Assembly: GCA_030740435.1 (NCBI GenBank)
Contig: JASLXG010000066.1
Span: 24,603 to 88,602 of the forward strand
Direction: 5' to 3'
Length of the DNA: 64,000 bases
Source of the DNA: Alphaproteobacteria bacterium
Lineage (GTDB): Bacteria > Pseudomonadota > Alphaproteobacteria > UBA2966
In this document: in pieces, positions 231-20,957 of the stretch
Numbering within the stretch: the stretch's first letter is position 1
Layout: each line of letters begins with the position of its first letter
The notes under the pieces: model-generated
Database searches by the model: none
Seen by the model: only the letters and a program-made list of their open reading frames with translations
What the model was told of the DNA's origin: nothing
Translations under genes and position numbers: made by a program

Positions 231-244
231 GCGGGGATGCAATC

Positions 245-5803: not shown

Positions 5804-5835
5804 GGAGGCAAACGAACGATGCCAATGAGGAGAGG

Positions 5836-6618: not shown

Positions 6619-6649
6619 CGGCGCCGGACGGGTGCGAGCGGAGAGGACC

Positions 6650-8764
6650 GTGACGAAGGCGGGGCAGGGGCGAAGCAGGCAGGCGCTGCTGGCGCTGGCG
6701 GCGCTGACCCTGGCCGTTCTGGCTGCCTCGCCGGCCTGGGCCCTGGAGGCCAACGAATACCGCCAGGTCCTGGGCCTCGATTCGCGCAAAGTCGTTTGGT
6801 TCCTGGCCCAGATGCACCTTTTCTTCGGCGCCTTCGTGCTCGGCGTGCCGCTGTTCGCCGTGATCATCGAAATCGTCGGCTGGAAGAACGGCGACGAACG
6901 CTTCGACAAGCTGGCCTACGAATTCACCAGCCTGCTCAGCGTCGCCTATGCCACCACGGCGGCACTCGGCGGCATGCTGGCCTTCGCGCTGTTTACGCTT
7001 TACCCGACCTTCATGGGCTTCATGGCCGGAGCCTTCAAGGACGTCTTTTTCGTCTACGCCATCCTGTTTTTTGCCGAGACCTTCTGCCTCTATCTCTACT
7101 ACTACGGCTGGAAGGCGATGCAGGGGCGGGAGCCTTTCGGAAAAACCCTGCAACTGCTCTTCAAGACGGCCGGCGTGGTCATCGCAGGCCTTGGCCTGCT
7201 TTTCCTGTTCGGTCTTATCGGACCCGAGATGCGGGGCGATACCCGGGCCTTCATGGCGCTCTTGTACGTGCTGCCGCTGGGGGCCGGGATATATCTGCTG
7301 AAAGACGGCAAGTCGGGCCACATCCTGATCGGCATCCTGCTCAACCTGGCCGGCACCGGCATCATGCAGGCGGCCAACTCGATGGCCGGCTTCATGATGA
7401 GCCCGGCCGGCGTCAGCGAGGCCGGCGAGATCATCGGCAGCACCTGGCAGGTCTTCGAGAACGTGCTGGCCACGCCGGTGGCTATCCACCGCATGCTGGG
7501 CAATCTCGCCTTCGGCGGCCTGGTGGCGGGATCGTATGCCGCCGTCAAGTTCATCGGCGCCAAAACGGCCGAGGAAAAGGCGCACTACGACTGGATGGGC
7601 TACATCGCCAATTTCGTCGCCATCGCCGCCCTGATCCCGCTGCCCTTCGCCGGCTACTACCTGGGCCGCGAGGTCTATTCGACCTCGGCCGTCATGGGCA
7701 ACAACATGATGGGCGGCGATTTCTCCTGGACCTTCATCATCCAGGCCGTGCTGGTGGGCTCGCTGTTCTTGATCTCGAACTATTACCTCTGGTCCGGCAT
7801 GACCCGCATCCCGGGGTCCGAGCGCTATTACAAGTTCATCAAGTTCATCCTCTTTGCCCTGATCGTCTCCTTCGCCATCTGGCTGACGCCGCACAACCTG
7901 CCGCTGACGGGCTCGGAGGTGGGCGATATGGGCGGCAGCCAATACCACCCGACGCTCAAGTTCCTGGGCCTGATGCCGGCCAAGAACGCGGTGGTCAACC
8001 TGATCATCATCTCGACCTTCGTCAGCTTTCTTTTGTATCGCCGCGGCAACAAGGCCGATGCCGTGTCGATCCGGGCCCAGGGGCGGACGCCGATGATCGT
8101 CATCGGCCTGGCCGGCGCGGCGGCGCTCTTGATCGTTGGCCAATTCGCCTGGTCGCTGATGACCATGAGCCCGGCCGAGCTCGACCTGCCGGCCGACACG
8201 GCGCAGTACTTCCGCACCGTCGGTTGGCTCTTGATCGGCGAATGCGCCATGGTGGTGGTGGCCGTCGGCCTGGCGCTCACGGACCGCGGCAAGTGGGCCC
8301 AGGCGCTCTATCTCGCCTACACCGTCTTCAGCGTCGTGCTGTTCCTCGGCGTCTACGGCTTCGTGGTCATGGAGAAGGCCTCGCCCTTCCTGCGCGACGT
8401 TGCCGTGGCCCAGTTCCTGCAGCTCATCAGTGCCCTCATTCTGGTCTCCGCCATCGACCTATTCCTGTTCAAGGGCGCTCAGGAGATCGGCCCCCTGCAG
8501 TGGGGCAAGATGACCAACCGCAGCCAGTACGCGCTGCTGGCGCTGACCTTCGTCATCACCATGAACATGGGCCTGATGGGCTTCATCCGCTCAGGTTTGC
8601 GCGGCGACTGGCACATCTTCGGGGTCATGCGCGACACCTCGGAATGGTCCTACACGCCGACCAACGCCACCATGACCGAGATGGTCAGCCTGGCCGTGCT
8701 GGTCTTCATGGTGGGCGTCGCCTTCATGTTCTGGCTGGGCAGCATCGCTGCCAAGAAGGACTAG
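6650..8764 (+). CDS. CydA-like (cytochrome bd subunit I-like) polytopic membrane protein, module 1; no cydB partner
   Basis: 704 aa from GTG 6650 (RBS GGAGAGGA 6640-6647), with about 16-18 hydrophobic segments. Blocks alignable to E. coli CydA: AQMHLFFGAFVLGVPLF (His19 region), AILFFAETFCLYLYYYGW (FLESTFVGLFFFGW region), AIHRMLGNLAFGG (His186 region). Confidence 0.65.
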   Translation: MTKAGQGRSRQALLALAALTLAVLAASPAWALEANEYRQVLGLDSRKVVWFLAQMHLFFGAFVLGVPLFAVIIEIVGWKNGDERFDKLAYEFTSLLSVAYATTAALGGMLAFALFTLYPTFMGFMAGAFKDVFFVYAILFFAETFCLYLYYYGWKAMQGREPFGKTLQLLFKTAGVVIAGLGLLFLFGLIGPEMRGDTRAFMALLYVLPLGAGIYLLKDGKSGHILIGILLNLAGTGIMQAANSMAGFMMSPAGVSEAGEIIGSTWQVFENVLATPVAIHRMLGNLAFGGLVAGSYAAVKFIGAKTAEEKAHYDWMGYIANFVAIAALIPLPFAGYYLGREVYSTSAVMGNNMMGGDFSWTFIIQAVLVGSLFLISNYYLWSGMTRIPGSERYYKFIKFILFALIVSFAIWLTPHNLPLTGSEVGDMGGSQYHPTLKFLGLMPAKNAVVNLIIISTFVSFLLYRRGNKADAVSIRAQGRTPMIVIGLAGAAALLIVGQFAWSLMTMSPAELDLPADTAQYFRTVGWLLIGECAMVVVAVGLALTDRGKWAQALYLAYTVFSVVLFLGVYGFVVMEKASPFLRDVAVAQFLQLISALILVSAIDLFLFKGAQEIGPLQWGKMTNRSQYALLALTFVITMNMGLMGFIRSGLRGDWHIFGVMRDTSEWSYTPTNATMTEMVSLAVLVFMVGVAFMFWLGSIAAKKD

Positions 8765-8768
8765 CCGC

Positions 8769-9746
8769 ATGACCGCCACCATGGCCAGGGTTGCGCTGTT
8801 CATGTTTCTGCTGCTGGGCCTTTTCCTGTGGGTCGGCAGCACCATCACGGCCATGACCGGCGGCGACAAGCGGCCCAAGGGCGGCGCCGTCGAGGTCAGC
8901 CCCGAGGGCGGCGAGGCCATCTTCTGGGGCAAGGGGCGCTGCTTCACCTGCCACAGCCTGGGCGGCCAAGGGAGCGCCGTGCGCTGCCCCAACCTGGGCC
9001 AATTCGGCGACAAGTTCGCGCTGCCCATCGGCGCCCGAGCGGCGGAGCGGGCCAAGGAACGCAGCGCCAAGACCGGCCAGACCTACACGACCACCGATTA
9101 CCTGGTGGAAAGCCTGGCCGAGCCTGGGGCCTACGTCGTCGAGGGCTACAAGAACGAGATGGCCATCGTCTACGCGCCGCCGATCTCGCTCAATCTTACC
9201 GAGATCAAGGCCGTGATCGCCTACTTGCAGAGCCAGGGCGGCGACGTCGACATGGAGGCGCTGAACAAGCCAAGCCCGATCAGCCAGAAGTTCTTCGCCC
9301 GCATCAATGCGGCCTCGGCCGCCGGTGGTGGCGATCCCGGTGCCGGCGAGGTGGTCTTCGAGGACAACTGCGCCGAATGCCATGACCTCGGTGGTGAAGA
9401 CGAGGAGCTGCCGGGTCCGGCGCTTTCGGGCGTCGGCAAGAAGGGCCTCAAGTTCCTGGCCGATGCCATCCTCAGGCCGGCCAAGGAGATCACCAAGGGT
9501 TTCGAGACGTATCAAGCGGTGATGAAGGACGGCCGCAAGCACGTTGGCCTGAAAAGCCGTGACGAGGGCGGCGAGGTCGACATCACCAAGGCCAACGGCG
9601 ACGTCGAGACGCTGGCCAAGGCCGAGATCAAGGAGCTCAAGGAAGACAAGGGCAAATCGATCATGCCCGAAGACCTGATCGAGGCCCTGACGGTCAAGGA
9701 CTATCAGGACGTCCTCTCGTTCCTGCTGTTGCAAAAGGGCGAGTAA
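8769..9746 (+). CDS. membrane-anchored di-haem cytochrome c, module 1
   Basis: N-terminal TM helix. CFTCH and CAECH motifs. The C-terminal half resembles the Planctomycete/Verrucomicrobia-type haem-binding domain (...SIMPEDLIEALTVKDYQDVLSFL). Confidence 0.8.
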   Translation: MTATMARVALFMFLLLGLFLWVGSTITAMTGGDKRPKGGAVEVSPEGGEAIFWGKGRCFTCHSLGGQGSAVRCPNLGQFGDKFALPIGARAAERAKERSAKTGQTYTTTDYLVESLAEPGAYVVEGYKNEMAIVYAPPISLNLTEIKAVIAYLQSQGGDVDMEALNKPSPISQKFFARINAASAAGGGDPGAGEVVFEDNCAECHDLGGEDEELPGPALSGVGKKGLKFLADAILRPAKEITKGFETYQAVMKDGRKHVGLKSRDEGGEVDITKANGDVETLAKAEIKELKEDKGKSIMPEDLIEALTVKDYQDVLSFLLLQKGE

Positions 9747-9752
9747 GGCACC

Positions 9753-10718
9753 ATGGCAAAGCTCAGAATCAGTCGCTTCTGGTGGGTCGTGATCACCATT
9801 GTGGCGGTCTATGCCTTCGTCAAATGGGGCATTCCGGCGCTCTCGCGGGAAATCACGGCGCTGCCCTTCCCGCTTTCGGTGCCGGGCACCTTGATGTTCA
9901 TCTACATCGTGCTGACGCTGGTGGCGCTGTTTCTCTTCATCACCTTTTCGGACGACTACCTGGAAGAATTCAGCCGCCCCATCAAGCGTCTGCTGCGCGG
10001 CGAATTCGGCGCCATCCCGCGCCTCGTGGTGCTGCTGGCGGTGCCGTTGATCGTCGGCTGGCAGGTTTACGACGTGACCGTGCCCAAGGTCGAGCTGCCC
10101 TCGACGCTGCGCATCCAGCACCCCTCGTCGAACTTCCCCAAGAAGTTCGAGAGCATGAACAATCCCTTCGCCAATCCCGATGAAGCCACGGTCGCGGCCT
10201 TCATCGAGCAGGCCAAGGACGAGGAGATCGAGTTCATCGCCCAAGTCCAGGGCGACATCGAGGCCTGGCGCGAAGAGATCGATCCAGACAACCCCTACGA
10301 TTTCATCCCCACCAAGCCCTGGCGTGCCTTTCTCGCCCAGCTCGAAGAGGGCGAGGTCGAGCCGGCCGTGGCCAAGGCGGCGCTGGTGGAGAAGAACCTC
10401 TTCGAGGGGCGCGCCCTATATGCCATGAACTGCCGGCCCTGCCACGGCGACAGCGTCGCCGGCGACGGCCCGCTGGCCGACGGCTTCAAGCTCAGGCCGA
10501 TCAACTTCACCGACAACGGCACCATCGAGACCATCGTCGAGGGCTACACCTTCTGGCGCGTGAGCAACGGCGGCCCCGGCCTGCCCACCGAGGCCACACC
10601 CTGGGATTCGGCCATGCCCGAGTGGAAGGTCAGCCTGACCGAGGCCGAGCGCTGGAAGATCATCCTGGCCGAATACGACCTGGCCCAGAAGACGCCGCGC
10701 ATCCCGGAGAGCCATTGA
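9753..10718 (+). CDS. 3-TM membrane-anchored mono-haem cytochrome c, module 1
   Basis: Three N-terminal hydrophobic helices. One CRPCH motif followed by FWRVSNGGPGLPTEATPWDSAMP. Its stop overlaps the next start (TGATG, 10716-10720). Confidence 0.8.
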   Translation: MAKLRISRFWWVVITIVAVYAFVKWGIPALSREITALPFPLSVPGTLMFIYIVLTLVALFLFITFSDDYLEEFSRPIKRLLRGEFGAIPRLVVLLAVPLIVGWQVYDVTVPKVELPSTLRIQHPSSNFPKKFESMNNPFANPDEATVAAFIEQAKDEEIEFIAQVQGDIEAWREEIDPDNPYDFIPTKPWRAFLAQLEEGEVEPAVAKAALVEKNLFEGRALYAMNCRPCHGDSVAGDGPLADGFKLRPINFTDNGTIETIVEGYTFWRVSNGGPGLPTEATPWDSAMPEWKVSLTEAERWKIILAEYDLAQKTPRIPESH

Positions 10719-12337
10719 TGGTTTCGCGCATCACCATGGCGCTGGGCTTGGGCCTTCTCGCTTTCGCGGTCTCGCCGGCCGAGGCCGCCGACGTCTCGCA
10801 GGATCCCCAGCCCGAGTTCACGGACGAGCTGCGGGCTGAAGGCCGGCAGATCTACTTCCAGCGCTGCAGCTTCTGCCACGGCCTGCTGGGCGACGGCGAG
10901 GGACCGGCGGCGCCCTTCATGGACCCCCGGCCGCGCGACTTCACGCTGGGCACCTTCAAGTTCCGCACCACCCAGTCGGGCGAGCTGCCGCAAGATTCAG
11001 ACATCTTCCGCACCGTCAGCCGCGGCCTCAGCGGCACCGCCATGCAGGCCTTCGACGACGAGCGCATCAAGAACGGCCTCAGCGAGCACCAGCGCTGGGC
11101 CGTGATCGCCTACATCCAGACCTTCGCCCAGGAGTTCGACGATGAGGAACTGGACCCGGTCAAGACCGGCAAGGTGGTGGCGCTGCCCAAGGACCGCCCG
11201 GCCTATGGCGCCGAAATCGTGGCCAAAGGCAAAGAAATCTTTCTCAAGGCCAAGTGCTGGGAATGCCACGGCAAGTCGGGCCGCGGCGACGGCCAAAAAT
11301 CCTTCGACCGCAAGGACGACTGGGGCTTTCCCATCCGCATCCGCAACGTCACCCATCCCTGGAAGATCAAGGCCGGCGACCGCGTCGAGGACATCTACAT
11401 GCGTTTCTCGACCGGCATCAGCGGCACGCCCATGCCGTCTTTCGTCAAGGCCCTGAGCGAGAGCGAACGCTGGCAGCTGGCCAACTTCATCAAGTCTTTG
11501 CAGATCCAGCGCACCAGCCACCAGGTGCTGAAGGCGCTGCGCCTGGAGGGCGAGCTGCCCGAGAGCCCGGATGATCCGCGCTGGAAGCAAGCCGAGCCCA
11601 TGGACGTGATTCTTACCGGGCAGGCCGTGGCGCCGCCGCGCTGGCAAAGCCCGTCGGTCGAGATGGTGACGCTGAGGGCCGTCTTCAATGACAACGAAAT
11701 CGCTTTCCGGCTGACTTGGGACGACCCCTTCAAGGACACCAAGCACGACGCCGGGCAGGAACTCGACGTCAAGGAGATCAGCGCCAGCGGCATCTACAGT
11801 TCATACGTCGACGTCAACGAGTTGGCGGTGCGCAAGCTGGAGACCTATCGCGACGCCGTGGCGCTGCAGTTTCCCGTGAAGCCCACCGAGGGCACCAGGC
11901 GGCCGCACTTCCTGCGCGGCTCGGCCTCGGATCCGGTGCATCTCTGGCTTTGGAAAGCCGATGAGGGCGCTGTCGAGGAAGCCGTCGGCCGGGGTTGGCG
12001 CCAAGGCCTGAGGCCGCAGCCCGAGGAGCAGCAGCAGGTCGCCGCCAAGGCCGCCTGGGACCAGGGGCGCTGGCAACTGGTGATGAAACGGCCCTTGCGC
12101 ACCGAGGACAAGAACGACGTCCAGTTCGAGGCCGGCCGCTTCATTCCGCTGTCGCTCAATGCCTGGGACGGCTCCAACGGCGAACACGGTTTGATCATGA
12201 GCCTCTCTAGTTGGTATTACGTCTTCCTCGAAGCGCCGACGCCGATCAGCGTTTACCTCTATACCATCCTGGCGATCTTGATCACGGGCGGTCTGGGTTT
12301 CTGGTTGATGAGAAAAGCTGAAGCGGAAGACGCCTAG
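10718..12337 (+). CDS. di-haem cytochrome c fused to EB_dh-like (ethylbenzene-dehydrogenase gamma/NxrC-like haem-b) domain with C-terminal TM anchor, module 1
   Basis: Signal peptide. CSFCH and CWECH in CcoP-like repeats (PRDFTLG, GTAMQAF / GTPMPSF). Then about 250 aa of beta-rich domain (VTLRAVFNDNEIAFRLTWDD...FIPLSLNAWDGSNGEHG). C-terminal helix VYLYTILAILITGGLGFWL. Confidence 0.65.
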   Translation: MVSRITMALGLGLLAFAVSPAEAADVSQDPQPEFTDELRAEGRQIYFQRCSFCHGLLGDGEGPAAPFMDPRPRDFTLGTFKFRTTQSGELPQDSDIFRTVSRGLSGTAMQAFDDERIKNGLSEHQRWAVIAYIQTFAQEFDDEELDPVKTGKVVALPKDRPAYGAEIVAKGKEIFLKAKCWECHGKSGRGDGQKSFDRKDDWGFPIRIRNVTHPWKIKAGDRVEDIYMRFSTGISGTPMPSFVKALSESERWQLANFIKSLQIQRTSHQVLKALRLEGELPESPDDPRWKQAEPMDVILTGQAVAPPRWQSPSVEMVTLRAVFNDNEIAFRLTWDDPFKDTKHDAGQELDVKEISASGIYSSYVDVNELAVRKLETYRDAVALQFPVKPTEGTRRPHFLRGSASDPVHLWLWKADEGAVEEAVGRGWRQGLRPQPEEQQQVAAKAAWDQGRWQLVMKRPLRTEDKNDVQFEAGRFIPLSLNAWDGSNGEHGLIMSLSSWYYVFLEAPTPISVYLYTILAILITGGLGFWLMRKAEAEDA

Positions 12338-12391
12338 GACGCGCTAGAGTGCGGTCCATCCGTATGGGGAGAGAAGTTTGGGAGAGCGAGT

Positions 12392-13054
12392 ATGAGAATA
12401 ATTTTTGCCTCATCTTTGGCGCTGGCGCTGAGCCTGGCCGCAAGTGGTCCGGCCCGGGCTGATGCGGCGGCCGGCAAGGCCGCCTTCGCGGCCCAGAAAT
12501 GCGAGGGCTGCCATTACACCGAAGGGCCGGCCAGGGAGAAGTCGATCGACGATCAGTTGGCCAAGAAGGGGCCTGAGCTGTGGTACGCCGGTTCCAAGTT
12601 CCAGGCGCCCTGGCTCGAGGCCTGGCTGCAAAAACCCGATGCCATCCGGCCGCTGAAGTACAACACGCTCGAACAAGAGAACCCCGGCGACCATCCCAAG
12701 CTTTCGGGCGGCGATGCCAAGAACGTCGCCGCTTTCCTCATGAGCCTGACCTCGGACGCTGTCAAGGCGGGCAAGGTCAAGGCCAAGAGGAACGCCAAGG
12801 GGCGCCTGATTTTCTCCAAGAAAATGCCCTGTTCCGGTTGCCACTCCTCCATCGGCCGCAAGAAGAAAGTCGGCGGCGGGCGTTCCGGCCCGACCCTGGT
12901 CGGGGCCGGCCAGCGCCTCAACCCGGACTGGATCCTGGCCTATCTCAAGACGCCCGACGTCTTCAAGCCGATCAAGGCCATGCCCGTGTTCGCCGGTATC
13001 CTGGGCGACAAGGACATGCTCAACCTGGCCCGCCACGTGGCCAGCTTCAAGTAG
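12392..13054 (+). CDS. periplasmic di-haem cytochrome c
   Basis: Signal peptide (ALALSLAASGPARA). CEGCH and CSGCH motifs. RBS GGGAGAG. Confidence 0.8.
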   Translation: MRIIFASSLALALSLAASGPARADAAAGKAAFAAQKCEGCHYTEGPAREKSIDDQLAKKGPELWYAGSKFQAPWLEAWLQKPDAIRPLKYNTLEQENPGDHPKLSGGDAKNVAAFLMSLTSDAVKAGKVKAKRNAKGRLIFSKKMPCSGCHSSIGRKKKVGGGRSGPTLVGAGQRLNPDWILAYLKTPDVFKPIKAMPVFAGILGDKDMLNLARHVASFK

Positions 13055-13074
13055 CCCGGCGGGAGGATAGAACC

Positions 13075-13443
13075 ATGAAAAGATTGACCACCGCCGCTGC
13101 CTTCTGCACCCTGGCGTTTGCCCTGGCCGTTCCTTCGGCCCAGGCCGCCGATGCCAAGAAGGTCTACAACTTCTATTGCGCCCAGTGCCACGGCACCGCC
13201 GGCAAAGGCAAGGGACCCAACGTCACCAAGGACTTTCCCGTCAGCCCGCGCGACTTCACCAATGCCGCCGAGATGGACAAGCTCTCGGACGCCGACATGA
13301 AGAACGTGATTCTGGATGGCGGTCCGGCGGCCTCCAAGTCGCCCATGATGCCGCCCTGGTCCAAGACCCTGAAGGGCGACGAGGTTGACGCTCTGGTCGG
13401 CTACCTGCGCAAGTTCTGCGGCTGCAAGGGCAAGCAAGGCTAG
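13075..13443 (+). CDS. periplasmic mono-haem cytochrome c (class I)
   Basis: Signal peptide (FALAVPSAQA). CAQCH, with distal Met candidates in SPMMPPW. RBS GGGAGGA 13061-13067. Confidence 0.8.
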   Translation: MKRLTTAAAFCTLAFALAVPSAQAADAKKVYNFYCAQCHGTAGKGKGPNVTKDFPVSPRDFTNAAEMDKLSDADMKNVILDGGPAASKSPMMPPWSKTLKGDEVDALVGYLRKFCGCKGKQG

Positions 13444-13452
13444 TAAGGCGCC

Positions 13453-13492
13453 CGGTGCCGCCGGGGAGGCGGCGCCGCTTCGTTTCAATTTT
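13453..13492 (+). terminator. rho-independent terminator ending the first module
   Basis: Stem GGTGCCGCC (13454-13462) / GGCGGCGCC (13468-13476) with one G-U pair and loop GGGGA. Followed by GCTTCGTTTCAATTTT. Confidence 0.6.
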
Positions 13493-13723
13493 GGGAGAAG
13501 GGAGCCGCCGCGGTCTTGGACACTGCGGCCTTCAGAAAACGAAAAACCACAGAATCAGCACGATCACCACGGCGTTGATCAGCATGCCGGTGAGAATGAA
13601 GGTGTCGGCCAGACGTTTCTTGGGGATTTTCATTGAGGTAATGCAGTCTGTGGTTGCTTAATCTATGTGAAGGATATGGTTTCGGAGGCAGGTTAGGTTT
13701 CGGGCGCGCAACGATGGCTGGAC

Positions 13724-13846
13724 ATGACGATGACTGAAAACAACGGTGCAACAGGCAGTGGATCAGCCAACGCCTGGGCCGGTCCGGCCCTCTTTACGGT
13801 CGTTGCCGTGGTCATGCTGGTCTTCTTCTATTGGTTCCTGTCCTAG
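13724..13846 (+). CDS. candidate 40-aa single-TM micro-protein upstream of CydA-like gene 2
   Basis: Translates to MTMTENNGATGSGSANAWAGPALFTVVAVVMLVFFYWFLS*. One clear hydrophobic helix. Weak RBS. Not in the supplied track because it is under 60 aa. Confidence 0.3.
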   Translation: MTMTENNGATGSGSANAWAGPALFTVVAVVMLVFFYWFLS

Positions 13847-13897
13847 AGTCAAGGCAGCCTGCAGGGGGGCACAAATGAATAATCCGAGGGATTGCTC

Positions 13898-14014
13898 ATG
13901 AAGGACTACGTGGTGCCCTTTGTGGCGGCGTTCGTGGTGTGGGGTCTCCTCTTTCTCGGTCTCGACGTGGTGATCATGAACGCCCAGGGACTGAACCTGA
14001 TCTATCAGCCGTAG
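13898..14014 (+). CDS. candidate 38-aa single-TM micro-protein immediately upstream of CydA-like gene 2
   Basis: Translates to MKDYVVPFVAAFVVWGLLFLGLDVVIMNAQGLNLIYQP*. GAGGG lies 8 nt upstream of the ATG. The stop is 9 nt before the GTG of the CydA-like gene. Confidence 0.4.
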   Translation: MKDYVVPFVAAFVVWGLLFLGLDVVIMNAQGLNLIYQP

Positions 14015-14023
14015 GGGGGACTG

Positions 14024-15880
14024 GTGACGCACAGCAAGGTTTTGACCGCCTGGCGCCCCTGGGTGCTGGCGGCTCTGGTGGCGACGCTGTTGCTGGCCCT
14101 GGTGCCGCTGCTGGGCAGCGCCCTGGATATCGCGTCGCCGGCCCTGGCGGCCGAAGGCGAGGCGGCGGCGGCGGCAAGCGGCGAGCAGGCGGCGGCCCCG
14201 GCCGGCCCGACCATCGCGCCGCCCAAACTGAAGAGCACCGACTATCCGGTTGTGGCCGGCGTCAACGGACGCATCTTCGTCTGGCTGGCGGCGCAATTGC
14301 ACCTCTGGTTCGCGGCCTTCGTGCTGGCCGTGCCGATCTTCGTCTTCATCATCGAAGCCATCGGCATGTACAGCCGCGACCAACGCTACGACAACATGGC
14401 CTACGAGTTCATCAAGGTCAGCATCACCGCCTATTCCCTGACCGCCATCCTGGGTGGCCTGTTGGCCATCGGCCTGATCGTTTTCTACCCGCACCTCTTC
14501 CAGTACATGTCCGGCGTCTTCAAGGAATCGATGGTCTGGTATGCGGTGCTGTTCTTCGCCGAAAGCGCCTGCCTTTACATCTATTACTACGGCTGGCACT
14601 GGCTGCAGGGCGGCTTCCGCAAGTGGGTTCATCTGACGCTGGGGCTGGTGCTGAATGGCGTCGGCACGACGCTGATGTTCCTGGCCAACGCCTGGCTCAC
14701 CTTCCAGATGAGCCCGGCCGGCGTCGATGCCGCCGGCCTCTATTCCGGCGACGTCTGGGCCGCCATCCACAATCCCTTGTGGAACCCCATCAACCTGCAC
14801 CGCATGATCGCCAACGTCGCCTACGGCGGCTCGGTGGTCGGCGCCTATGCCGCCTTCCGGTTTCTCTCGTCGCGCACGGCCGAGCTCAGGGCGCATTACG
14901 ACTGGATGGGCTACACCGCCAACTTCATCGCCATCAGCGCGCTCTTGCCGCTGCCCTTCGCCGGCTACTACCTGACGGCCGAGATCTACGCCTACAGCCA
15001 GCAGATGGGCATCACCCTGATGGGCGGCGTCTTCGCCTGGCTCTTCATCATCCAGGCGGTGCTGATCGGCACGCTGTTCCTCTCGGCCAACTATTATCTC
15101 TGGTGCGGCATGGGGCGCAGCGACGGGGCGCCGCGTTACAACCCCTATATCAAGTACATAGCCTTCGGTCTGGTGGCCTCGTTCCTGGTCTGGTTCACGC
15201 CCCACACCCTGGTGCTGACGAACGAGGAACTGAAGGCTCTGGGCGGGCCCTACCACAAGTACCTGGGGCCGCTGGGCATCATGCCGGCCAAGAACACGGC
15301 CGTGAACTACATGATCATCCTGACGGCGCTGAGTTTCCTGATTTACCGCCGCGCCAACAAGATCCCGACGGTAAGCTGGGTCAAGATCGGCAATGCCGTG
15401 CAGGTGGCCATGTTCACGGCCGCCGTCGTCAACATCCTTATCCTGGGCGTCTACCACGGCTACTTCACCAACACCGTCTACAAGGTGGCGAGCTCGATCC
15501 CCCAGGTGTTGACGACGCTGGTGGTGATCTTCGTCAGTACGCTCATCGACGTCTTCATGTACCGCGGCGCCAAGGACGTGGCGCCGCTGCATTGGGGCCG
15601 ATTGCCCGAACGCGCCCAGTACGCGCTCTTCCTGCTGGCCGTCTCGTTCACCTGGCTGATGGGCCTGATGGGCTACATCCGCTCGGGCATCCGCCAGCAC
15701 TGGCACGTGGTCGGCATCTTCCGCGACAACTCGGCCGACGCCTTCACGCCGACCCTGGCGGGCGGTGCCAATATCGTCTCTGTGGGGGTCATCATCTTCC
15801 TGGTGATGGTCATCTTCGTCTTCTGGGTCAGCCAGATCAGCGGCCGCAAGACCGAAGTGGCCGGATACTGGAGGACCTAG
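14024..15880 (+). CDS. CydA-like (cytochrome bd subunit I-like) polytopic membrane protein, module 2; no cydB partner
   Basis: 618 aa, about 14 hydrophobic segments. AAQLHLWFAAFVLAVPIF, AVLFFAESACLYIYYYGW, NLHRMIANVAYGG and MGLMGYIRSGIRQHWH are all shared with the module-1 paralogue. GTG start with GGGGGA 14015-14020. Confidence 0.65.
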   Translation: MTHSKVLTAWRPWVLAALVATLLLALVPLLGSALDIASPALAAEGEAAAAASGEQAAAPAGPTIAPPKLKSTDYPVVAGVNGRIFVWLAAQLHLWFAAFVLAVPIFVFIIEAIGMYSRDQRYDNMAYEFIKVSITAYSLTAILGGLLAIGLIVFYPHLFQYMSGVFKESMVWYAVLFFAESACLYIYYYGWHWLQGGFRKWVHLTLGLVLNGVGTTLMFLANAWLTFQMSPAGVDAAGLYSGDVWAAIHNPLWNPINLHRMIANVAYGGSVVGAYAAFRFLSSRTAELRAHYDWMGYTANFIAISALLPLPFAGYYLTAEIYAYSQQMGITLMGGVFAWLFIIQAVLIGTLFLSANYYLWCGMGRSDGAPRYNPYIKYIAFGLVASFLVWFTPHTLVLTNEELKALGGPYHKYLGPLGIMPAKNTAVNYMIILTALSFLIYRRANKIPTVSWVKIGNAVQVAMFTAAVVNILILGVYHGYFTNTVYKVASSIPQVLTTLVVIFVSTLIDVFMYRGAKDVAPLHWGRLPERAQYALFLLAVSFTWLMGLMGYIRSGIRQHWHVVGIFRDNSADAFTPTLAGGANIVSVGVIIFLVMVIFVFWVSQISGRKTEVAGYWRT

Positions 15881-15883
15881 GCG

Positions 15884-16702
15884 ATGATGAACTTCCTCAA
15901 GGTGGCCCTCTTCTCGCTGGTCGTCATCGGCTTTTTCGCGGGCTATTCCAACTGGGGCATCCCGCAGATCGAGCCGGCGGCGCCGCCGGTGGAAGAAGTG
16001 CTCGATCTGGGCGCCATGACCATGGACGACTTCATCGCGCTGGGCGGCAAGATCTACAACGGCAAGGGCACCTGCACGCTCTGCCACAATGCCGTCGGCG
16101 GCCGGGCGCCCATGCTCGATACCGCCGCCGGCCTGGTTGCCGAACGCCTCAAGGACGCCCGCTACAAGGGCGAGGCCAGCGACGCCGAGGGCTATCTGCT
16201 GGAATCGCTGGTCAATCCCTCGGCCTTCGTGGTGGCGGGCTTCGGCAAGAAGGGGACAGCCGATGCCGAAAGCCCGATGCCCGACGTCTCGGGCGGCTCG
16301 GTGGGCTTGAGCGAGGTCGAACTGGCGGCCGTGGTGGCCTTCCTGCAGGATCTCGGCGGCACCGATGTGACGGTGGAGATCCCCTCGGGCGCCCAGGCCT
16401 CCGACGAAAGCGGCGACGAGGAGGGCGAGCCCCGGGCGGCCTACGCCTCGATCGAGGAACTGATCGCCGAGCAGTCCTGCGGCGCCTGCCACAAGGTGGC
16501 CGGCGAGGAAGGCGACGTTGGTCCGGACCTCAACGGCATCGGCGCCAAGTACGATCGCGACTACCTGCGCCGTTCCATCCTCGATCCCAATGCCGACATC
16601 GGCCAGGGCTTCGAGGCCGACACCATGCCGGCGGAATACGGCACCACCCTCTATGCCCAGGAACTCGAAATGCTGATCGACTACCTGGCCAAACTGAAAT
16701 GA
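15884..16702 (+). CDS. membrane-anchored di-haem cytochrome c, module 2
   Basis: N-terminal TM helix. CTLCH and CGACH motifs. YLLESLVNPSAFVVAGF and DYLRRSILDPNADIGQGF blocks are paralogous to the 8769-9746 protein. Confidence 0.8.
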   Translation: MMNFLKVALFSLVVIGFFAGYSNWGIPQIEPAAPPVEEVLDLGAMTMDDFIALGGKIYNGKGTCTLCHNAVGGRAPMLDTAAGLVAERLKDARYKGEASDAEGYLLESLVNPSAFVVAGFGKKGTADAESPMPDVSGGSVGLSEVELAAVVAFLQDLGGTDVTVEIPSGAQASDESGDEEGEPRAAYASIEELIAEQSCGACHKVAGEEGDVGPDLNGIGAKYDRDYLRRSILDPNADIGQGFEADTMPAEYGTTLYAQELEMLIDYLAKLK

Positions 16703-16715
16703 GCAGGGGCGCGGC

Positions 16716-17483
16716 ATGAAAATTCCCAGGCTCCTGCTGTCGGTCATCACCGTCCTGGTCTTCTACGCCGCCTTCGAGGTGGTCTTCGGGCTGATCCTCG
16801 GGCAGCCCATCCCGGCCAGCCTGATGACCATGTACATGTTCTTCGTGGTTGCCGGCGTCTTCATGACGTTTACCTTCACCGAGGAAGGCGGCCGCGAGAT
16901 GGTGGCGCCGATCAAGGCGCTGGTCGAGGATCCCTCCAAACGCATGGTGCGCAACGTCGTCTTCGTCATCGTGCCGCTGCTGGCCGGTGGCCTGACGTAT
17001 TGGCAGATGCAGCCCTCCTTCGAGGCGCCGCTGGAGCTGCGTTCGATCCATCCGGCACCGCCCTCGAGCGCCAAGATCTACGGCAAGCGCTACGATCTGC
17101 TGACGCTGGAGAACCCGTTGCGCAAGTTCGAGAAGGAGGATCCCGAGAAGTTCCGCGAATTGGTGGCGGCGGGCGCCACGGTCTACATCGAGAACTGCCA
17201 GTACTGCCACGGCGACAAGCTCGATGGCCAGGGGCCCTACGCCCAGGGCCTCAATCCGGTGCCGCTCAACTTCCAGGACATCGGCACCATCGCCCAGCTT
17301 CAGGAATCCTACCTCTTTTGGCGCATTGCCACGGGCGGGCCGGGCCTGCCCAGCGAAGCCTCGCCCTGGCTCTCGTCGATGCCGGTGTGGCAGAGCTTCC
17401 TCAAGGAAGAAGAAATCTGGCAGGTCATCCTTTTCCTTTACGACTACACCGGCCACCGGCCGCGCTCATGGGAGCATGAATGA
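16716..17483 (+). CDS. 3-TM membrane-anchored mono-haem cytochrome c, module 2
   Basis: Three hydrophobic helices. CQYCH followed by FWRIATGGPGLPSEASPWLSSMP. Paralogue of 9753-10718. Overlaps the next gene by 4 nt. Confidence 0.8.
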   Translation: MKIPRLLLSVITVLVFYAAFEVVFGLILGQPIPASLMTMYMFFVVAGVFMTFTFTEEGGREMVAPIKALVEDPSKRMVRNVVFVIVPLLAGGLTYWQMQPSFEAPLELRSIHPAPPSSAKIYGKRYDLLTLENPLRKFEKEDPEKFRELVAAGATVYIENCQYCHGDKLDGQGPYAQGLNPVPLNFQDIGTIAQLQESYLFWRIATGGPGLPSEASPWLSSMPVWQSFLKEEEIWQVILFLYDYTGHRPRSWEHE

Positions 17484-19024
17484 TGGCTGCGGTGACGATG
17501 GATAAAGTGCTGCGGGCGCTGGGCGCCGGTATCGTGCTGGCCGCTCTTTCGGCGGGTGCCGCCCTGGCCGTGCCGGGCAATGCCGAGAAGGGCGAAAAGG
17601 TCTACCAGTTCCGCTGCCTGGCCTGCCACGGCGACGAAGGCGACGGCCTGGGCCCGGCTGCCGAGCGCCTCAACCCGCCGCCTCGGGACTTTACGCTGGG
17701 GATTTATAAGATCAAGACCAGCGCCTTTGACGAAGACGCGCCCAACGACGACGACATCTTCCGCATGATCAAGGACGGCATGCCCGGAACCGCCATGCCG
17801 GGCTGGTCGGACGTGCTCAGCGAGCAGGACATGTGGGACCTGGTGGCCTATCTCAAGGTCTTCGCCGAGATCGAGGAGGCGCCGGAGGGCCAGATCGACT
17901 ACGGCAAGCAGATCGAAAGCTCGGCCGACAGCATCGCCCGTGGGCGTGAAATTTTCCTCGATGGCGAGCGCTGCTCCGAATGCCACGGCCGTGAAGGCCG
18001 CGGTGACGGCATCAAGAAGCTCAAGGACGACAACGGCGCCCGCACCTGGCCCAGGAACCTCACCAAGGCCTGGACCTATCGCGCCGACAACAGCGCCAAG
18101 GAGATCTTCCGCCGCGTCACGGTGGGTATTCCCGGCACCCAGATGCCGGCCTTCGCCGATCCCAAGTCGAAAAAGAAACTGAGCATCGAGGAACGCTGGC
18201 ACGTGGCCAACTATGTGGCCTCGCTGGCCAAGACGGTGGAGGTCGTCAATCCCTCCAAGACGGTGATCGTGGCGGCCAAGCTCGAGGGCGCGCTGCCGGC
18301 CAAGGTCGACGACCCGAAATGGGCCGAGGCGGCGCCCGTGACCTTCATGCTGGTGCCCCAGATCATCGCCGAGGACAGGTTCTTCACGCCGGCCCACGAC
18401 AGCATCACCGCCCGCGCCTTCTATAACGACGAAGCGATCGCCATGCTGCTGGAATGGGACGACCGCACCAAGTCCTTGCCCGGGGACGACAAGGCGGCCC
18501 AGATCGCGGACGAGGAGCTGAGCTCCGACATGGTGGCCGTGCAACTGCCGGTGACGATTCCCATAAGCCAGGAGAAGCCCTATTTCCTGATGGGCGACAA
18601 ATCCCATCCCGTGAACTTCTGGCGCTGGTCCAGCGGCGGCAAGGAGGCGTCCCAGGGCGTCGAGTTGATGAACGCCACCGGGCCCTACGAGTTCGCCGAA
18701 CGCGACGCCGCCAAGACTGGTCTCACGGCCAGCGGCAGCTACAAGGACGGCACCTGGCGGGTAGTCATGACCCGGCCCTTGCGCACCGATGATGCCGAGG
18801 GCGACCTGCAGTTCGAGGAGGGCCGCTTCATCCCCGTGGCCTTCGCCAACTGGGACGGCTCCAACAGCGAAAGCGAAACCAGCCACACCCTGACGACCTG
18901 GTACTGGCTGCTGCTCGAGCCGCCGACGGGGACGCGGCCCCTGATCACGGCCCTGATCGTAGTGCTGCTGCTGGCGGCGGCCGAGATCTGGTGGGCGCGT
19001 AGCGCCCGTGGGTCCGATGCATGA
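17480..19024 (+). CDS. di-haem cytochrome c fused to EB_dh-like domain with C-terminal TM anchor, module 2
   Basis: CLACH and CSECH motifs. PRDFTLG and GTAMPGW/GTQMPAF blocks. Then ITARAFYNDEAIAMLLEWDD...FIPVAFANWDGSNSESE. C-terminal helix LITALIVVLLLAAAEIWW. Paralogue of 10718-12337. Confidence 0.65.
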   Translation: MMAAVTMDKVLRALGAGIVLAALSAGAALAVPGNAEKGEKVYQFRCLACHGDEGDGLGPAAERLNPPPRDFTLGIYKIKTSAFDEDAPNDDDIFRMIKDGMPGTAMPGWSDVLSEQDMWDLVAYLKVFAEIEEAPEGQIDYGKQIESSADSIARGREIFLDGERCSECHGREGRGDGIKKLKDDNGARTWPRNLTKAWTYRADNSAKEIFRRVTVGIPGTQMPAFADPKSKKKLSIEERWHVANYVASLAKTVEVVNPSKTVIVAAKLEGALPAKVDDPKWAEAAPVTFMLVPQIIAEDRFFTPAHDSITARAFYNDEAIAMLLEWDDRTKSLPGDDKAAQIADEELSSDMVAVQLPVTIPISQEKPYFLMGDKSHPVNFWRWSSGGKEASQGVELMNATGPYEFAERDAAKTGLTASGSYKDGTWRVVMTRPLRTDDAEGDLQFEEGRFIPVAFANWDGSNSESETSHTLTTWYWLLLEPPTGTRPLITALIVVLLLAAAEIWWARSARGSDA

Positions 19025-19260
19025 CGCCGAACCCGGCGGCTGACGACGAGGAGTTACGGGACGAGGAACCGGTCCGCGGCGTCAAGACGCGTATGATCGG
19101 CGCCGGCTTGATCTTTCTCGGCGTTCTCGACAGTCTGCTCAGTTGGCGGGGCGGTTTCGAGCCCAGCCTGTTTCATTGGTTTCTGATTGCCGCCGGCATA
19201 CTGGTTTTTGCCATCGGCGCGATCCGGCAGAGGCGGGACGCCGGGTCTCCGTCACCCTAG
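19021..19260 (+). CDS. small 2-TM membrane protein, translationally coupled to the preceding gene
   Basis: ATGA start/stop overlap at 19021-19024. Two hydrophobic helices (MIGAGLIFLGVLDSLL; FHWFLIAAGILVFAIGAI). Confidence 0.5.
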   Translation: MTPNPAADDEELRDEEPVRGVKTRMIGAGLIFLGVLDSLLSWRGGFEPSLFHWFLIAAGILVFAIGAIRQRRDAGSPSP

Positions 19261-19270
19261 GAGAGTGTCC

Positions 19271-20944
19271 ATGACTGCACCCGCGTCCAGCCAGCCAGCG
19301 CTGCAGGACGGTGCCCAGGCGTCGCCGCCCGACACGGCGCCGGTTTCCTTCAAGCGCTTCATCGTCGCCCTCGATGCTTCCGACCATGCCAACCGGGCGC
19401 TGGCCGAAGCGCTACGCCTCTCGGCCACGGCCGAGGGTGAGATCACCGGCATCCACGCCTATGCCGCGGCGCTGCATGACCGGCGCTTTCGCCAGATGGA
19501 AGGCGGCCTGCCCGAGCGCTACCTCGACGAAGAGGAAATGTCCTACCAGCGCGACGTCCACGACGACCTGATTACGCGCGGTCTCGACATCATCTCCGAC
19601 AGCTACCACGACCAGGCCGAGGCCGCCTGCGAGACGGCCGGGCTGCCTTATGCCCGCCTCAGCCCCGAAGGCAAGAACGCGAGCCGCATCGTCGAAGCCC
19701 TCGAGGCCGGGGGCCACGACGTGCTGGCCATGGGTGCGCTGGGCCTGGGAGCGGTGCCGGGCAGCCTGATCGGCACCGTCTGCGAGCGCGTGGTGCGGCG
19801 CTCGCCGATCGATGTGCTCGTCGTTCGCGATGTCGAACGGGCCATCGGCGAGGGGCCGGTGGTGGTCGGCCTGGATGGCTCGCCACAGTCCTTCGGGGCG
19901 CTGCTCACGGGCTTCGAGATGGCCCGCCGGCTCGGCGTCGAGCTGCATGCCGTGGCGGCCTACGACCCCTACTACCACTACGTCGCCTTCAACCGCATCG
20001 CCGGCGTGCTCAGCGACGAAGCCGGCAAGGTCTTTCGCTTCAAGGAACAAGAACAGCTGCACGAGGAACTGATCGACGAGGGCATCGCCAAGATCTATCA
20101 GTCCCACCTCGAGGTGGCGTCGCGCACGGCCAAGGATGCCGGCGTCGAGCTCGTCACCAAGCTCCTGGACGGCAAGCCCTTCAAGGCCATCGAGGCCTAT
20201 GTCCGTGAGGTCGGCGCCAGCCTGCTGATGCTGGGCAAGACCGGCATCCACGGCGACGCCATGATCGATATCGGCGGCAACACCGAAAACCTCTTGCGTC
20301 TCGCGCCCTGCCACGTCTGGATCGGCCAGGCCAGCCACGTGCCGGCGCTGGATATCGTCGCCGCCGAAAGCATCAGCTGGAGCCATGAGGCCGAGGCGCT
20401 GCTCAACCGCGCCCCCGAATTCGCCCGTGGCATGGCCCGCCAGGCGGTGATCCGCTTTGCCCATGCCCGGGGCAACACCTACATCACGTCGGATCTGGTC
20501 GAGCAGGTGGCGGCCAAGATGATGCCCGGCCGGGGCCAGGCGGAGGCGGCCGCGGCCAGCCCGGAAACGGTCTGGAGCGCCGCCGCCGAAGCCGAGCTGG
20601 CCAAGCTCGATGATGCCAACCAGGCCGCCGGTGTTCGCCTGCGGGCGGAAAAGCGGGCTCGCCGCGAGGGCGCGGCCGAGGTTGGCGCCGAGCACGTGCG
20701 GGCCTTTGTCGAGGCGCCGGCCGCGGCCACGCTGCCTTGGGCCGCGGCGGCGCTGGCCCGGCTGACCAGGGTGCCCGAGGCCATGCGCGATCGCACCCGG
20801 GCGCGCATCGAAGAGGTGGCGCGCGAGCAGGGCGCCACCGAGGTCACGCTGGCGATCTGCGAGCTGGGCCTCGAAGAGGCCCGCAAGGCCATGCACGAGG
20901 CCATGGTCAAAGGCGGTCACACCAAGACGGTCGAAGACGATTGA
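19271..20944 (+). CDS. tandem universal-stress-protein (UspA) domains followed by two PCP_red-like domains
   Basis: Two USP-like halves (FKRFIVALDASDHANRAL...VCERVVRRSPIDVLVV; VVVGLDGSPQSFGAL...NTENLLRLAPCHVWI). Two repeats of the W-x2-EA-x3-L-x3-P-x-(F/A)-x-R motif (ISWSHEAEALLNRAPEFARGMAR; LPWAAAALARLTRVPEAMRDRTR). RBS AGGAGAG before ATG 19271. Confidence 0.65.
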   Translation: MTAPASSQPALQDGAQASPPDTAPVSFKRFIVALDASDHANRALAEALRLSATAEGEITGIHAYAAALHDRRFRQMEGGLPERYLDEEEMSYQRDVHDDLITRGLDIISDSYHDQAEAACETAGLPYARLSPEGKNASRIVEALEAGGHDVLAMGALGLGAVPGSLIGTVCERVVRRSPIDVLVVRDVERAIGEGPVVVGLDGSPQSFGALLTGFEMARRLGVELHAVAAYDPYYHYVAFNRIAGVLSDEAGKVFRFKEQEQLHEELIDEGIAKIYQSHLEVASRTAKDAGVELVTKLLDGKPFKAIEAYVREVGASLLMLGKTGIHGDAMIDIGGNTENLLRLAPCHVWIGQASHVPALDIVAAESISWSHEAEALLNRAPEFARGMARQAVIRFAHARGNTYITSDLVEQVAAKMMPGRGQAEAAAASPETVWSAAAEAELAKLDDANQAAGVRLRAEKRARREGAAEVGAEHVRAFVEAPAAATLPWAAAALARLTRVPEAMRDRTRARIEEVAREQGATEVTLAICELGLEEARKAMHEAMVKGGHTKTVEDD

Positions 20945-20957
20945 GCATGGGAGGCTC

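Follow-up and report, generated by a model that had tools for sequence, protein, structure and literature searches.

Two neighbouring copies of a four-gene membrane module, each coding for a CydA-like protein and three cytochromes, are found in a 64,000-nucleotide stretch of DNA (hereafter the window) from an alphaproteobacterial metagenome-assembled genome (MAG) of the lineage UBA2966 (GCA_030740435.1, contig JASLXG010000066.1, positions 24,603 to 88,602). The modules are read here, with a probability of about 0.7, as two ancient paralogous forms of the OR-N2-type "cytochrome bd-like" complex, probably working as separate cytochrome-c-fed oxidoreductases that are likely O2 reductases. The haem-rich complex first drew notice in nitrite oxidisers and anammox bacteria, and the present host is a marine organism.

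Results and Discussion

Two Modules with the Same Gene Order

Module 1 (6650–12337) and module 2 (14024–19024) showed the same gene order A-B-C-D in their open reading frames (ORFs) and translations. Pfam searches placed Cyt_bd_oxida_I at the N-terminus of A1 and A2, EB_dh at the C-terminus of D1 and D2, and cytochrome c domains in both modules, with two, one and two CXXCH motifs in the B, C and D proteins, respectively. BLASTP comparison gave 41% identity over 497 residues (E 1.7e-115) plus 46% over 156 residues for A1/A2, 34% over 215 residues (E 1.6e-18) for B1/B2, 29% over 318 residues (E 1.5e-37) for C1/C2, and 36% over 517 residues (E 2.5e-102) for D1/D2; judged from these alignments, the likeness of the four pairs is far above chance. 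The repeated four-gene order reported at these positions by a first-pass annotation of the window was thus borne out by ORFs, translations, Pfam and BLASTP, and all four of the motifs that it had quoted were found in the translations of both copies. Its further statement that every pair aligns over the full length held as to the likeness of all four pairs, but the BLAST alignment of B1 and B2 covers only about 60–70% of their length. At the DNA level the identity between the modules is just 68–77% and is confined to the most conserved stretches.

Distribution and Origin of the Pair

One genome per species was used for a locus scan, which gave 80 loci onto which all cluster proteins were mapped. 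A1 and A2 each have more than 100 orthologues at 73–82% identity, in MAGs labelled Alpha-, Beta-, Gamma- and Deltaproteobacteria, and many of the A1 and A2 orthologues share contigs. The survey of relatives that had been proposed with the first-pass annotation found both modules in every proteobacterial locus with enough flank: all those in which 7.2 kb or more follow the A1-type gene (18, and the window) have the A2-type module, and the apparent single-module proteobacterial loci are truncated contigs. The supercluster is kept in at least 18 species-level proteobacterial MAGs with the same arrangement and the same intervening micro-ORFs; all the carriers of the full supercluster that were detected are MAGs.

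A neighbour-joining tree of 99 A-type proteins, midpoint-rooted and built without an outgroup, was divided into two types, and this split of the A gene was recovered in 50 of 50 bootstrap neighbour-joining trees. Type 1 (60 sequences) comprises A1 together with proteins of Nitrospinota, the second Nitrospirota copy, Anaerolineae, Rokubacteria/Methylomirabilia, anammox bacteria and others, and type 2 (39 sequences) comprises A2 with those of Acidobacteriota, Poribacteria, Entotheonella, a Bdellovibrionales MAG and the first Nitrospirota copy. Each B, C and D gene was given the type of the A gene that precedes it on its own strand; one split per tree then sorted the types for 84 of 84 C, 75 of 76 D and 55 of 57 B proteins. 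Because the B, C and D trees show the same type split as that of A, the four genes were duplicated together in a remote ancestor. The old duplication assumed by the first-pass annotation is therefore supported and is much older than had been implied. Its placing of the duplication in tandem in this genome was not upheld, since the closest relatives of each module are orthologues in other genomes (73–82% identity) and not the neighbouring copy (41–46% by BLASTP), and since outside Proteobacteria A1 groups with the type-1 proteins of Nitrospinota, Nitrospirota and anammox bacteria and A2 with the type-2 proteins of Acidobacteriota and Nitrospirota. Sub-functionalisation of the two modules, which it had suggested, is plausible: the accessories are type-specific and conserved, both CydA copies keep their ligands, and a terminator-like hairpin stands between the modules.

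Loci with two modules always hold one of each type; they were found in Proteobacteria, three Nitrospirota, Anaerolineae, a spirochaete and a Nitrospinota locus cut by the contig edge. Type 1 leads in the window and type 2 in Nitrospirota and Anaerolineae; in the spirochaete the modules are divergent. Among the sampled loci the anammox bacteria have only type 1 and the Acidobacteriota only type 2, and a 527-kb Joint Genome Institute (JGI) contig carries a lone type-2 module beside sox genes. The spread of the pair over several proteobacterial classes suggests that it was transferred as a whole cluster.

A recent tandem duplication in this very genome, followed by fast divergence, would fit the adjacency of the modules and their common strand and gene order, and yet it can hardly be entertained. 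In all 18 proteobacterial genomes compared the A1/A2 identity within a genome is 0.45–0.50, against about 0.80 for proteins of the same type from different genomes (trimmed columns); several other phyla carry both types; and a 79-residue segment with two hydrophobic stretches (A1 residues 498–576) is a feature of all type-1 proteins, while nearly all type-2 proteins lack it. On these grounds, and on those of the tree split and the sorting of B, C and D, this origin was rejected. Two independent acquisitions, with one module imported from a distant lineage and coming to lie beside the other by chance or selection, were also considered. The order of the types differs between phyla, so that the adjacency must have been rebuilt or rearranged at least once, and either type stands alone in some of the sampled loci. 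Within Proteobacteria, however, the pairwise distances of A1 and A2 are correlated (Mantel r = 0.79, a value reached in 0 of 2000 permutations), the GC content at third codon positions (GC3) of the two modules is indistinguishable (0.87–0.92), and the layout with its micro-ORFs is shared by at least 18 species-level genomes. GC3 is likewise uniform across both modules and their neighbours (0.78–0.92). Import of one module was rejected as highly improbable in view of the co-divergence, GC3 and shared layout.

The CydA-like Proteins A1 and A2

Alignment of the 99 A-type sequences assigned the equivalents of the Escherichia coli CydA residues H126 (A1 H224/A2 H203), H186 (A1 H280/A2 H259), M393 (A1 M442/A2 M420, with N424) and E107 (A1 E143/A2 E180), which are conserved in both types. 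H186 and M393 are ligands of haem b558. The H19 equivalent, the His of the haem d site, is A1 H56/A2 H93; His is found at this position in 100% of the type-2 and 72% of the type-1 sequences, and many of the type-1 sequences are N-terminally truncated. Further invariant His residues of the A proteins are H312/291, H433/411 and H655/561 (A1/A2 numbering). Counted from the first His, the offsets in A2 are +331 to the Met and +461 to the Ser that is found at the E445 position, in agreement with the +331 and +464 of the OR-N2 reference, and the whole residue pattern of A1 and A2 is that tabulated for OR-N2 by Murali, Gennis and Hemp. As all haem ligands of the OR-N2 family are kept, both CydA copies look functional.

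In both A proteins the match to Pfam Cyt_bd_oxida_I ends at profile position 231 of 418 or earlier, and in the AlphaFold2 model of A2 helices occupy the place expected for the Q-loop; on this match extent and model, the quinol-binding Q-loop region appears to be missing from the A proteins. Hydropathy-based counting of transmembrane (TM) segments of the A proteins was inconsistent, and the helix count was taken from the model, which shows about 14 long helices and an N-terminal anchor. The best Foldseek matches of the A2 model are CydA chains (E 4.5e-7 to 1.5e-4). A1 matched a solved structure over only about 115 residues, in Geobacillus CydA (E 1e-5), and among the solved structures searched there was no OR-N-type protein, the matches being canonical CydA chains only. 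Two insertions distinguish A1 from A2, each with two hydrophobic stretches, and would add about four helices: one is the 79-residue segment, and the other, a hydrophobic hairpin at residues 160–221, occurs within type 1 only on the Proteobacteria/Nitrospinota/Deltaproteobacteria branch. The modules come without a CydB-like gene. An internal N/C duplication within the CydA-like protein, which could replace a CydB partner, was considered and rejected (hhalign probability 0.2).

The Cytochrome Subunits B and D

B1 is a full-length homologue of PDB 7zs0_A, a "Hypothetical (Diheme) protein" of Kuenenia (E 9e-46), which we take to be Kustd1711; the same holds for the B proteins of type 1. The haems of Kustd1711 have potentials near +350 mV, and the protein has a beta "nose" domain (PMC11791136). 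At the place of this domain, in the C-terminal haem domain, B1 has an extra insertion, and B2 is shorter there.

The N-terminal part of D1 matches 6h5l_B (E 1.5e-53) and its C-terminal part matches NxrC (7b04_C) and EbdC (2ivf_C). D2 also matches EbdC (E 4e-10) and keeps the residue equivalent to Met108. The haem-b ligands of the gamma subunit of ethylbenzene dehydrogenase are presumably Met108 and Lys201. At the places aligned with these two residues, the EB_dh domain has Arg and Met in D1 and Met and His in D2, compared with Met and Lys in Kuenenia and two Met in the type-2 copies of Nitrospirota; the variable sites lie at about 11830–11850 and 12220–12240 in D1 and at about 18570–18590 and 18920–18940 in D2. 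These differences at the ligand positions may give the two modules different haem-b potentials.

Comparison with Known Systems

For Nitrospira, a duplicated cluster of bd-like, cytochrome c and alternative NxrC genes was described earlier (PMC6606698; Lucker et al. 2010, cited there). It has the same four-gene content and a tandem second copy, and the Nitrospirota loci of our scan (L040, L046 and L048) show type-2 and type-1 modules side by side, from the same two clades as A2 and A1, with a cupredoxin gene before the type-1 copy. The window differs from them in having type 1 first, in its alphaproteobacterial MAG host, in an arsenite oxidase/iodate reductase (Aio/Idr)-like molybdoenzyme in place of nitrite oxidoreductase (NXR), and in the three micro-ORFs and haem-biosynthesis genes that go with module 2; the Nitrospirota type-1 proteins also do not have the extra hydrophobic hairpin of A1.

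According to Murali, Gennis and Hemp (2021, bioRxiv 10.1101/2021.01.16.426971), OR-N2 operons also contain genes for several cytochromes c and for a homologue of EbdC. In agreement with this, the operons of the window hold the B, C and D cytochromes, of which D is EbdC-like. OR-N2 has about 14 TM helices, a number that the A2 model, of modest confidence, tentatively shows as well; the A proteins further share with OR-N2 the apparent lack of a Q-loop region, the equivalents of H19, H126, H186 and M393, Tyr at the position of E99, Glu at that of E107 and Ser at that of E445. The 79-residue segment of type 1 is a difference from OR-N2. A further duplication between 14-TM OR-N genes within one operon, with up to about 40% similarity, and the occurrence of OR-N in Proteobacteria (in a phylum table) were recorded in the same work (bioRxiv 10.1101/2021.01.16.426971). 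Comparison of the residue tables showed that the OR-N1 reference, in which Gly replaces E107 and which as a rule occurs beside petABD genes, fits neither copy of the window; the placing of type 1 in OR-N2 is tentative.

The window was also compared with the nxr cluster of Kuenenia stuttgartiensis (kustd1699-1713) and the homologous cluster of Nitrospina gracilis (PMC3578206, PMC8387239, PMC11791136). The anammox loci (L056–L065 and L080) have a type-1 module and a cupredoxin gene, followed by dihaem and monohaem cytochrome genes and a universal stress protein (USP) gene, and the solved dihaem cytochrome of Kuenenia is homologous to B1 over the full length; they differ from the window in that a single module is present in the sampled loci, accompanies NXR and belongs to the anammoxosome membrane of a strict anaerobe. 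The complex "TO_1" of Candidatus Manganitrophus consists of a bd-like protein of clade I, two cytochromes c and a periplasmic cytochrome b (Yu et al., bioRxiv 10.1101/2021.11.15.468770). It has the same subunit composition as the modules, is a proposed terminal oxidase and is very highly expressed (98th percentile), and it differs in being described as a single complex. With canonical CydAB(X) the modules share the N-terminal part with its haem ligands, the Pfam family Cyt_bd_oxida_I and the structural match to CydA; they differ in the absence of CydB and of the Q-loop region, in at least five predicted extra helices and in their predicted electron donor, which is cytochrome c and not quinol.

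Accessory Genes and the Region between the Modules

The features of the window are listed in Table 1. The first-pass annotation had noted that the modules differ in their accessory genes, and this was confirmed: the hallmarks of type 1 are the cupredoxin and the two soluble cytochromes, and those of type 2 are the micro-ORFs, the small tail gene and the USP/radical S-adenosylmethionine (SAM)/haem genes. These accessories are old, type-specific hallmarks that are conserved across phyla.

Table 1. Features of the window discussed in the text.
Feature	Position	Strand	Remarks
Rieske small subunit with twin-arginine translocation (TAT) signal (AioB/IdrB-like)	227..835	+	Pfam Rieske and TAT_signal
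Molybdopterin large subunit (AioA/IdrA-like)	849..3521	+	Pfam Rieske_3, Molybdopterin and Molydop_binding
HEAT-repeat protein, 731 aa	3608..5803	+	Acidic (EP)n run; Pfam HEAT_2, 8 stretches
Cupredoxin-like protein	5836..6618	+	C-terminal beta-sandwich; type-1 copper motif; hallmark of type-1 modules
A1, type-1 cytochrome bd-like (CydA-like) membrane protein	6650..8764	+	704 aa; Pfam Cyt_bd_oxida_I
B1, dihaem cytochrome c	8769..9746	+	325 aa; N-terminal anchor; two CXXCH
C1, 3-TM monohaem cytochrome c	9753..10718	+	321 aa; one CXXCH; Pfam Cytochrome_CBB3; hydropathy
D1, dihaem c + EB_dh (EbdC/NxrC-like haem b domain) + C-terminal TM	10718..12337	+	539 aa; Pfam
E1, soluble dihaem cytochrome c	12392..13054	+	Pfam
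F1, soluble monohaem cytochrome c	13075..13443	+	Pfam
Terminator-like hairpin and T-rich tail	13453..13477	+	10 pairs, 9 G-C; 10 nt past the F1 stop; consensus match
33-aa single-TM micro-ORF	13532..13633	-	tblastn matches in at least 24 loci
38-aa single-TM micro-ORF	13730..13846	+	Motif WAGPALF...FFWWF; conserved in at least 22 loci
38-aa single-TM micro-ORF directly 5' of A2	13898..14014	+	Conserved in at least 22 loci; candidate small subunit
A2, type-2 cytochrome bd-like (CydA-like) membrane protein	14024..15880	+	618 aa; Pfam Cyt_bd_oxida_I
B2, dihaem cytochrome c	15884..16702	+	272 aa; N-terminal anchor; without the extra C-terminal-domain insertion of B1
C2, 3-TM monohaem cytochrome c	16716..17483	+	255 aa; one CXXCH; hydropathy
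D2, dihaem c + EB_dh + C-terminal TM	17480..19024	+	514 aa; Pfam
T2, small membrane protein	19021..19260	+	79 aa; 3' of D2
USP x2 + PCP_red protein	19271..20944	+	Start uncertain; Pfam
AhbD/NirJ2-like radical SAM/SPASM + PCP_red protein	20958..22250	+	Pfam
HemY-like (proto/coproporphyrinogen oxidase family) flavoprotein	22165..23637	+	Start uncertain; Pfam Amino_oxidase
Cytochrome bc1 operon (Rieske, cytochrome b, cytochrome c1)	34682-37266	-	Canonical; 15 kb 3' of the cluster

The cupredoxin gene lies directly 5' of the type-1 A gene in loci of Alphaproteobacteria, anammox bacteria, Nitrospirota and Anaerolineae, and 68 of the 69 cupredoxin homologues have the type-1 copper motif C-x2-H-x2-M. 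E1, after D1, and F1 with it are kept in Proteobacteria, and E1-like (25–33% identity) and F1-like (34–42%) genes follow the anammox module. In one alphaproteobacterial MAG (L031, 6291–8900) additional cytochrome genes resembling F, C and D, with no accompanying A gene, were observed upstream of the cupredoxin gene and module 1, where they replace the idr-like genes.

The gap between the modules is 580 bp and holds three conserved single-TM micro-ORFs. The first-pass annotation had counted two of them before module 2; both 38-aa ORFs stand, and the third, of 33 aa, lies on the minus strand. The latter is found on the minus strand in Alphaproteobacteria and on the plus strand in Gamma- and Betaproteobacteria, and the 38-aa ORF before A2 is annotated as a gene overlapping the A2 start in two gammaproteobacterial MAGs (L004 and L086). 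Pfam gave no family match for the three micro-ORFs or T2. Small single-TM ORFs beside the large subunit recall CydX, the accessory subunit of canonical bd oxidases, and by analogy the micro-ORFs may code for small subunits or assembly factors. In the same two gammaproteobacterial MAGs a gene for a SCO1/SenC copper chaperone stands between the modules, just before the 38-aa ORF and A2 (L004, 17060–17701; L086, 9176–9886). Together with the cupredoxin and the several invariant His residues of A, this hints at a copper requirement.

At the position of T2, genes for 65–85 residues are found in L085, L086 and one JGI contig, the L086 protein being 50% identical to T2. The USP gene is linked to type-2 modules in Proteobacteria and Acidobacteriota, and also to the anammox module, and the radical SAM gene, which scored 293 bits against NCBIfam rSAM_ahbD_hemeb (below the cut-off of 500), accompanies type-2 modules in Acidobacteriota and Proteobacteria. 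A flavoprotein gene similar to the HemY-like one occupies its position in L085 and L086. On the JGI contig 3300072015 this gene is replaced by one of UPF0093, presumably the HemJ family, near the module, with a ferrochelatase gene upstream. Genes resembling those of haem maturation and late haem biosynthesis beside type 2 (19271–23637 in the window, 15214–20088 in L085) hint at a dedicated or modified haem supply for the complex.

The Adjacent Molybdoenzyme and Other Genes of the Window

There is no NxrA/B-like gene in the window, and the molybdoenzyme adjacent to module 1 is Aio/Idr-like. Its Rieske subunit scored 115 bits against NCBIfam arsenite_ox_S (cut-off 96), and its molybdenum (Mo) subunit passed the arsenite_ox_L cut-off. 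The identity of the Mo subunit is 27–31% with plasmid-encoded proteins that carry the annotation arsenite oxidase large subunit (that of strain NT-25 among them), 48% with an Azonexus plasmid protein and 66% with a protein of Vibrio sp. THAF190c. Two dihaem peroxidases of the cytochrome c peroxidase (CCP)/MauG family and a sigma-54 response regulator are encoded just upstream of the window (L001, 1313–3581), so that gene content and order, with two CCP_MauG genes before the Rieske and Mo genes, are those of idrP2-P1-B-A. The same content and order have been reported for iodate reductase clusters (PMC10989891; PMC8692401). With the iodate islands described by Reyes-Umana et al. 2021 (PMC8692401) and for Ca. 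Methylomirabilis iodofontis (PMC10989891) the window also shares the sigma-54 regulator; it differs in its Mo subunit, which shows only the above 48% identity to the Rhodocyclales-type island protein and belongs to a clade known from genes alone.

The proteobacterial pair is usually next to an idrP2P1BA-like cluster. Type-1 modules adjoin idr-like clusters, upstream or downstream, in Proteobacteria, Rokubacteria, Delta- and Lambdaproteobacteria and a spirochaete, and the varied arrangement of this neighbourhood speaks for a functional linkage. The Azonexus plasmid island (sensor, sigma-54 regulator, CCP, CCP, small subunit, large subunit, cytochrome c and MoaA genes) has no bd-like genes, and no bd-like module was found within 16 kb of the plain CCP-CCP-Rieske-Mo cluster of the cultured Vibrio sp. 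THAF190c (L087, NZ_CP045339.1, 1541920–1547391), a strain that is a possible experimental handle for this Mo-enzyme clade. Bd-like modules beside idr genes are not mentioned in PMC8692401, PMC10989891 or PMC11445184, and no paper containing both "bd-like" and "iodate" was found in the searchable literature.

The HEAT-repeat protein is kept between the Mo enzyme and module 1 in many loci (27–51% identity) and has no obvious signal peptide. Farther downstream, a DUF58 gene and a BatA/DUF4159 gene, of the kind seen in aerotolerance-type operons, were observed at 42137–45796. The stretch around them has a heterotrophic look, with genes for acyl-CoA synthetases, an amidohydrolase, major facilitator superfamily transporters, glutathione S-transferases and elongation factor G.

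Proposed Function and Alternatives

According to the reading preferred here, each module would be a complete subunit set that forms its own membrane complex and is probably transcribed separately. Protein A would be a polytopic haem-b protein with the N-terminal haem ligands of bd oxidases, without the Q-loop region and with extra helices, and all cytochrome domains of the module would face the periplasm. Electrons would pass from quinol through the bc1 complex to the soluble cytochromes E1 and F1 and the cupredoxin, would enter the module on its periplasmic side, and would then be led over about five c haems and one b haem to the bd-type haem site in the membrane. O2 reduction is the most likely reaction, and the modules would then be two cytochrome-c oxidases of differing properties, with at least one of them reducing O2. 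Beside an iodate-reductase-like enzyme they could consume O2 or related oxidants formed in the periplasm. In the model for Pseudomonas sp. SCT, iodate reduction releases H2O2 and O2 in the periplasm (summarised in PMC10989891), which would give a reason to co-encode high-affinity oxidases.

A number of points weigh against this reading. The position of E99 is Tyr (A1 Y136/A2 Y173) and that of E445, the Glu of haem b595, is Ser (A1 S648/A2 S554) in both types, and the A2 model is of modest confidence (mean predicted local distance difference test score, pLDDT, 63; predicted template modelling score, pTM, 0.60). To our knowledge the OR-N family has neither yielded a purified enzyme nor been shown to reduce O2, and it is called uncharacterised in the literature. 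Strictly anaerobic anammox bacteria keep a type-1 module, which argues against an obligatory oxidase role. Separate transcription has one consensus hairpin in its favour, and the number of hairpins in the region is not above the shuffled expectation; a sigma-70-type promoter scan of 5500–19600 found none, and sigma-54 consensus matches in the whole window do not exceed chance, with none in the gap at 13443–14024. The trees were neighbour-joining trees, midpoint-rooted and with no outgroup, and single-module status was judged from 20-kb loci. For Nitrospira and Nitrospina, reverse electron flow to quinone or a role as NXR anchor has been proposed (PMC3578206, PMC6606698).

These last proposals belong to the possible, if doubtful, alternative that the modules are not oxygen reductases at all and are cytochrome c:quinone oxidoreductases, or membrane docks, which couple high-potential molybdoenzymes of the periplasm (of the NXR and Idr-like kinds) to the quinone pool; the two types could then run in opposite directions. 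Type-1 modules do stand beside idr-like clusters in several lineages and in differing arrangements, homologous modules are placed by the literature in the nxr clusters of nitrite oxidisers and anammox bacteria, the retention in strict anaerobes and the NxrC/EbdC-like domain of D point the same way, and reverse electron transport has been proposed. The A proteins, however, appear to have no Q-loop region (the Pfam match stops at 231 of 418), and quinol-binding residues were found to be missing in bd-like oxidases (PMC3578206). Also opposed to it are the bc1 complex of the window, by which a link between quinol and cytochrome c already exists, the idr-like clusters of Azonexus and Vibrio that work without modules, and the strict conservation of the bd-type haem ligands.

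It is unlikely that A1 pairs with A2, in the manner of CydA-CydB or CydA-CydA', so that both gene sets make one supercomplex. Either type occurs alone with a full B-C-D set (in the anammox and Acidobacteriota loci and on the JGI contig beside sox), both copies retain every ligand, unlike the degenerate "b" partners of Murali et al., the order and orientation of the pair vary between phyla, with type 2 first in Nitrospirota and divergent modules in the spirochaete, and a terminator-like hairpin lies between the modules. What speaks for such pairing is that the modules are always adjacent and tightly co-diverged in Proteobacteria, that canonical bd oxidases need a homologous partner subunit and neither a CydB-like gene nor an internal N/C repeat in A2 could provide one, and that an OR-N1/OR-N2 CydAA' complex has been hypothesised for Nitrospinota (PMC10839748).

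A far-reaching version, to which only little probability is given, takes the whole supercluster (sigma-54 regulator, two peroxidases, Idr-like molybdoenzyme, HEAT protein, cupredoxin, type-1 module, soluble cytochromes, type-2 module and haem-maturation genes) as a respiratory chain complete in itself, which would serve a high-potential iodine couple and be built on the pattern of nitrite oxidation in Nitrospira. The Idr-like enzyme would work in the oxidative direction (iodide or hypoiodite to iodate), one module would be the terminal oxidase and the other would drive electrons uphill to the quinone pool; if true, this would be a lithotrophic route to iodate for marine low-oxygen Proteobacteria. 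In a tamer form, high-potential molybdoenzymes of the periplasm that come from unrelated families (NXR and Idr) would share the type-1 module as a general partner in the membrane.

Significance

Few gene sets in Nitrospira are transcribed as highly as the bd-like module, which has also been reported as conserved in Nitrospina and anammox bacteria, and its function has been an open question since the Nitrospira genome paper of 2010, the module being mostly read as part of the nitrite-oxidation machinery. The duplicated cluster of Nitrospira and duplications of OR-N were already known; the proteobacterial host and the linkage to idrP2P1BA-like genes are new. Added here are the formal two-type split common to all four genes, the strict pairing in Proteobacteria, and the type-specific accessories, including three conserved micro-proteins and the linked haem-biosynthesis genes.

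The window and its relatives show that the module has two ancient forms, that several phyla retain both together, and that either form has conserved helper genes of its own. The companion of the pair in many marine Proteobacteria of low-oxygen settings is not NXR but an iodate-reductase-like enzyme, which speaks for the modules being general high-potential electron hubs or oxidases and not NXR-specific parts, and a wider set of organisms becomes available for testing their function. A further suggestion of the linkage is that a large membrane apparatus, encoded alongside, is being missed when iodate respiration in oxygen-minimum zones is predicted from genomes.

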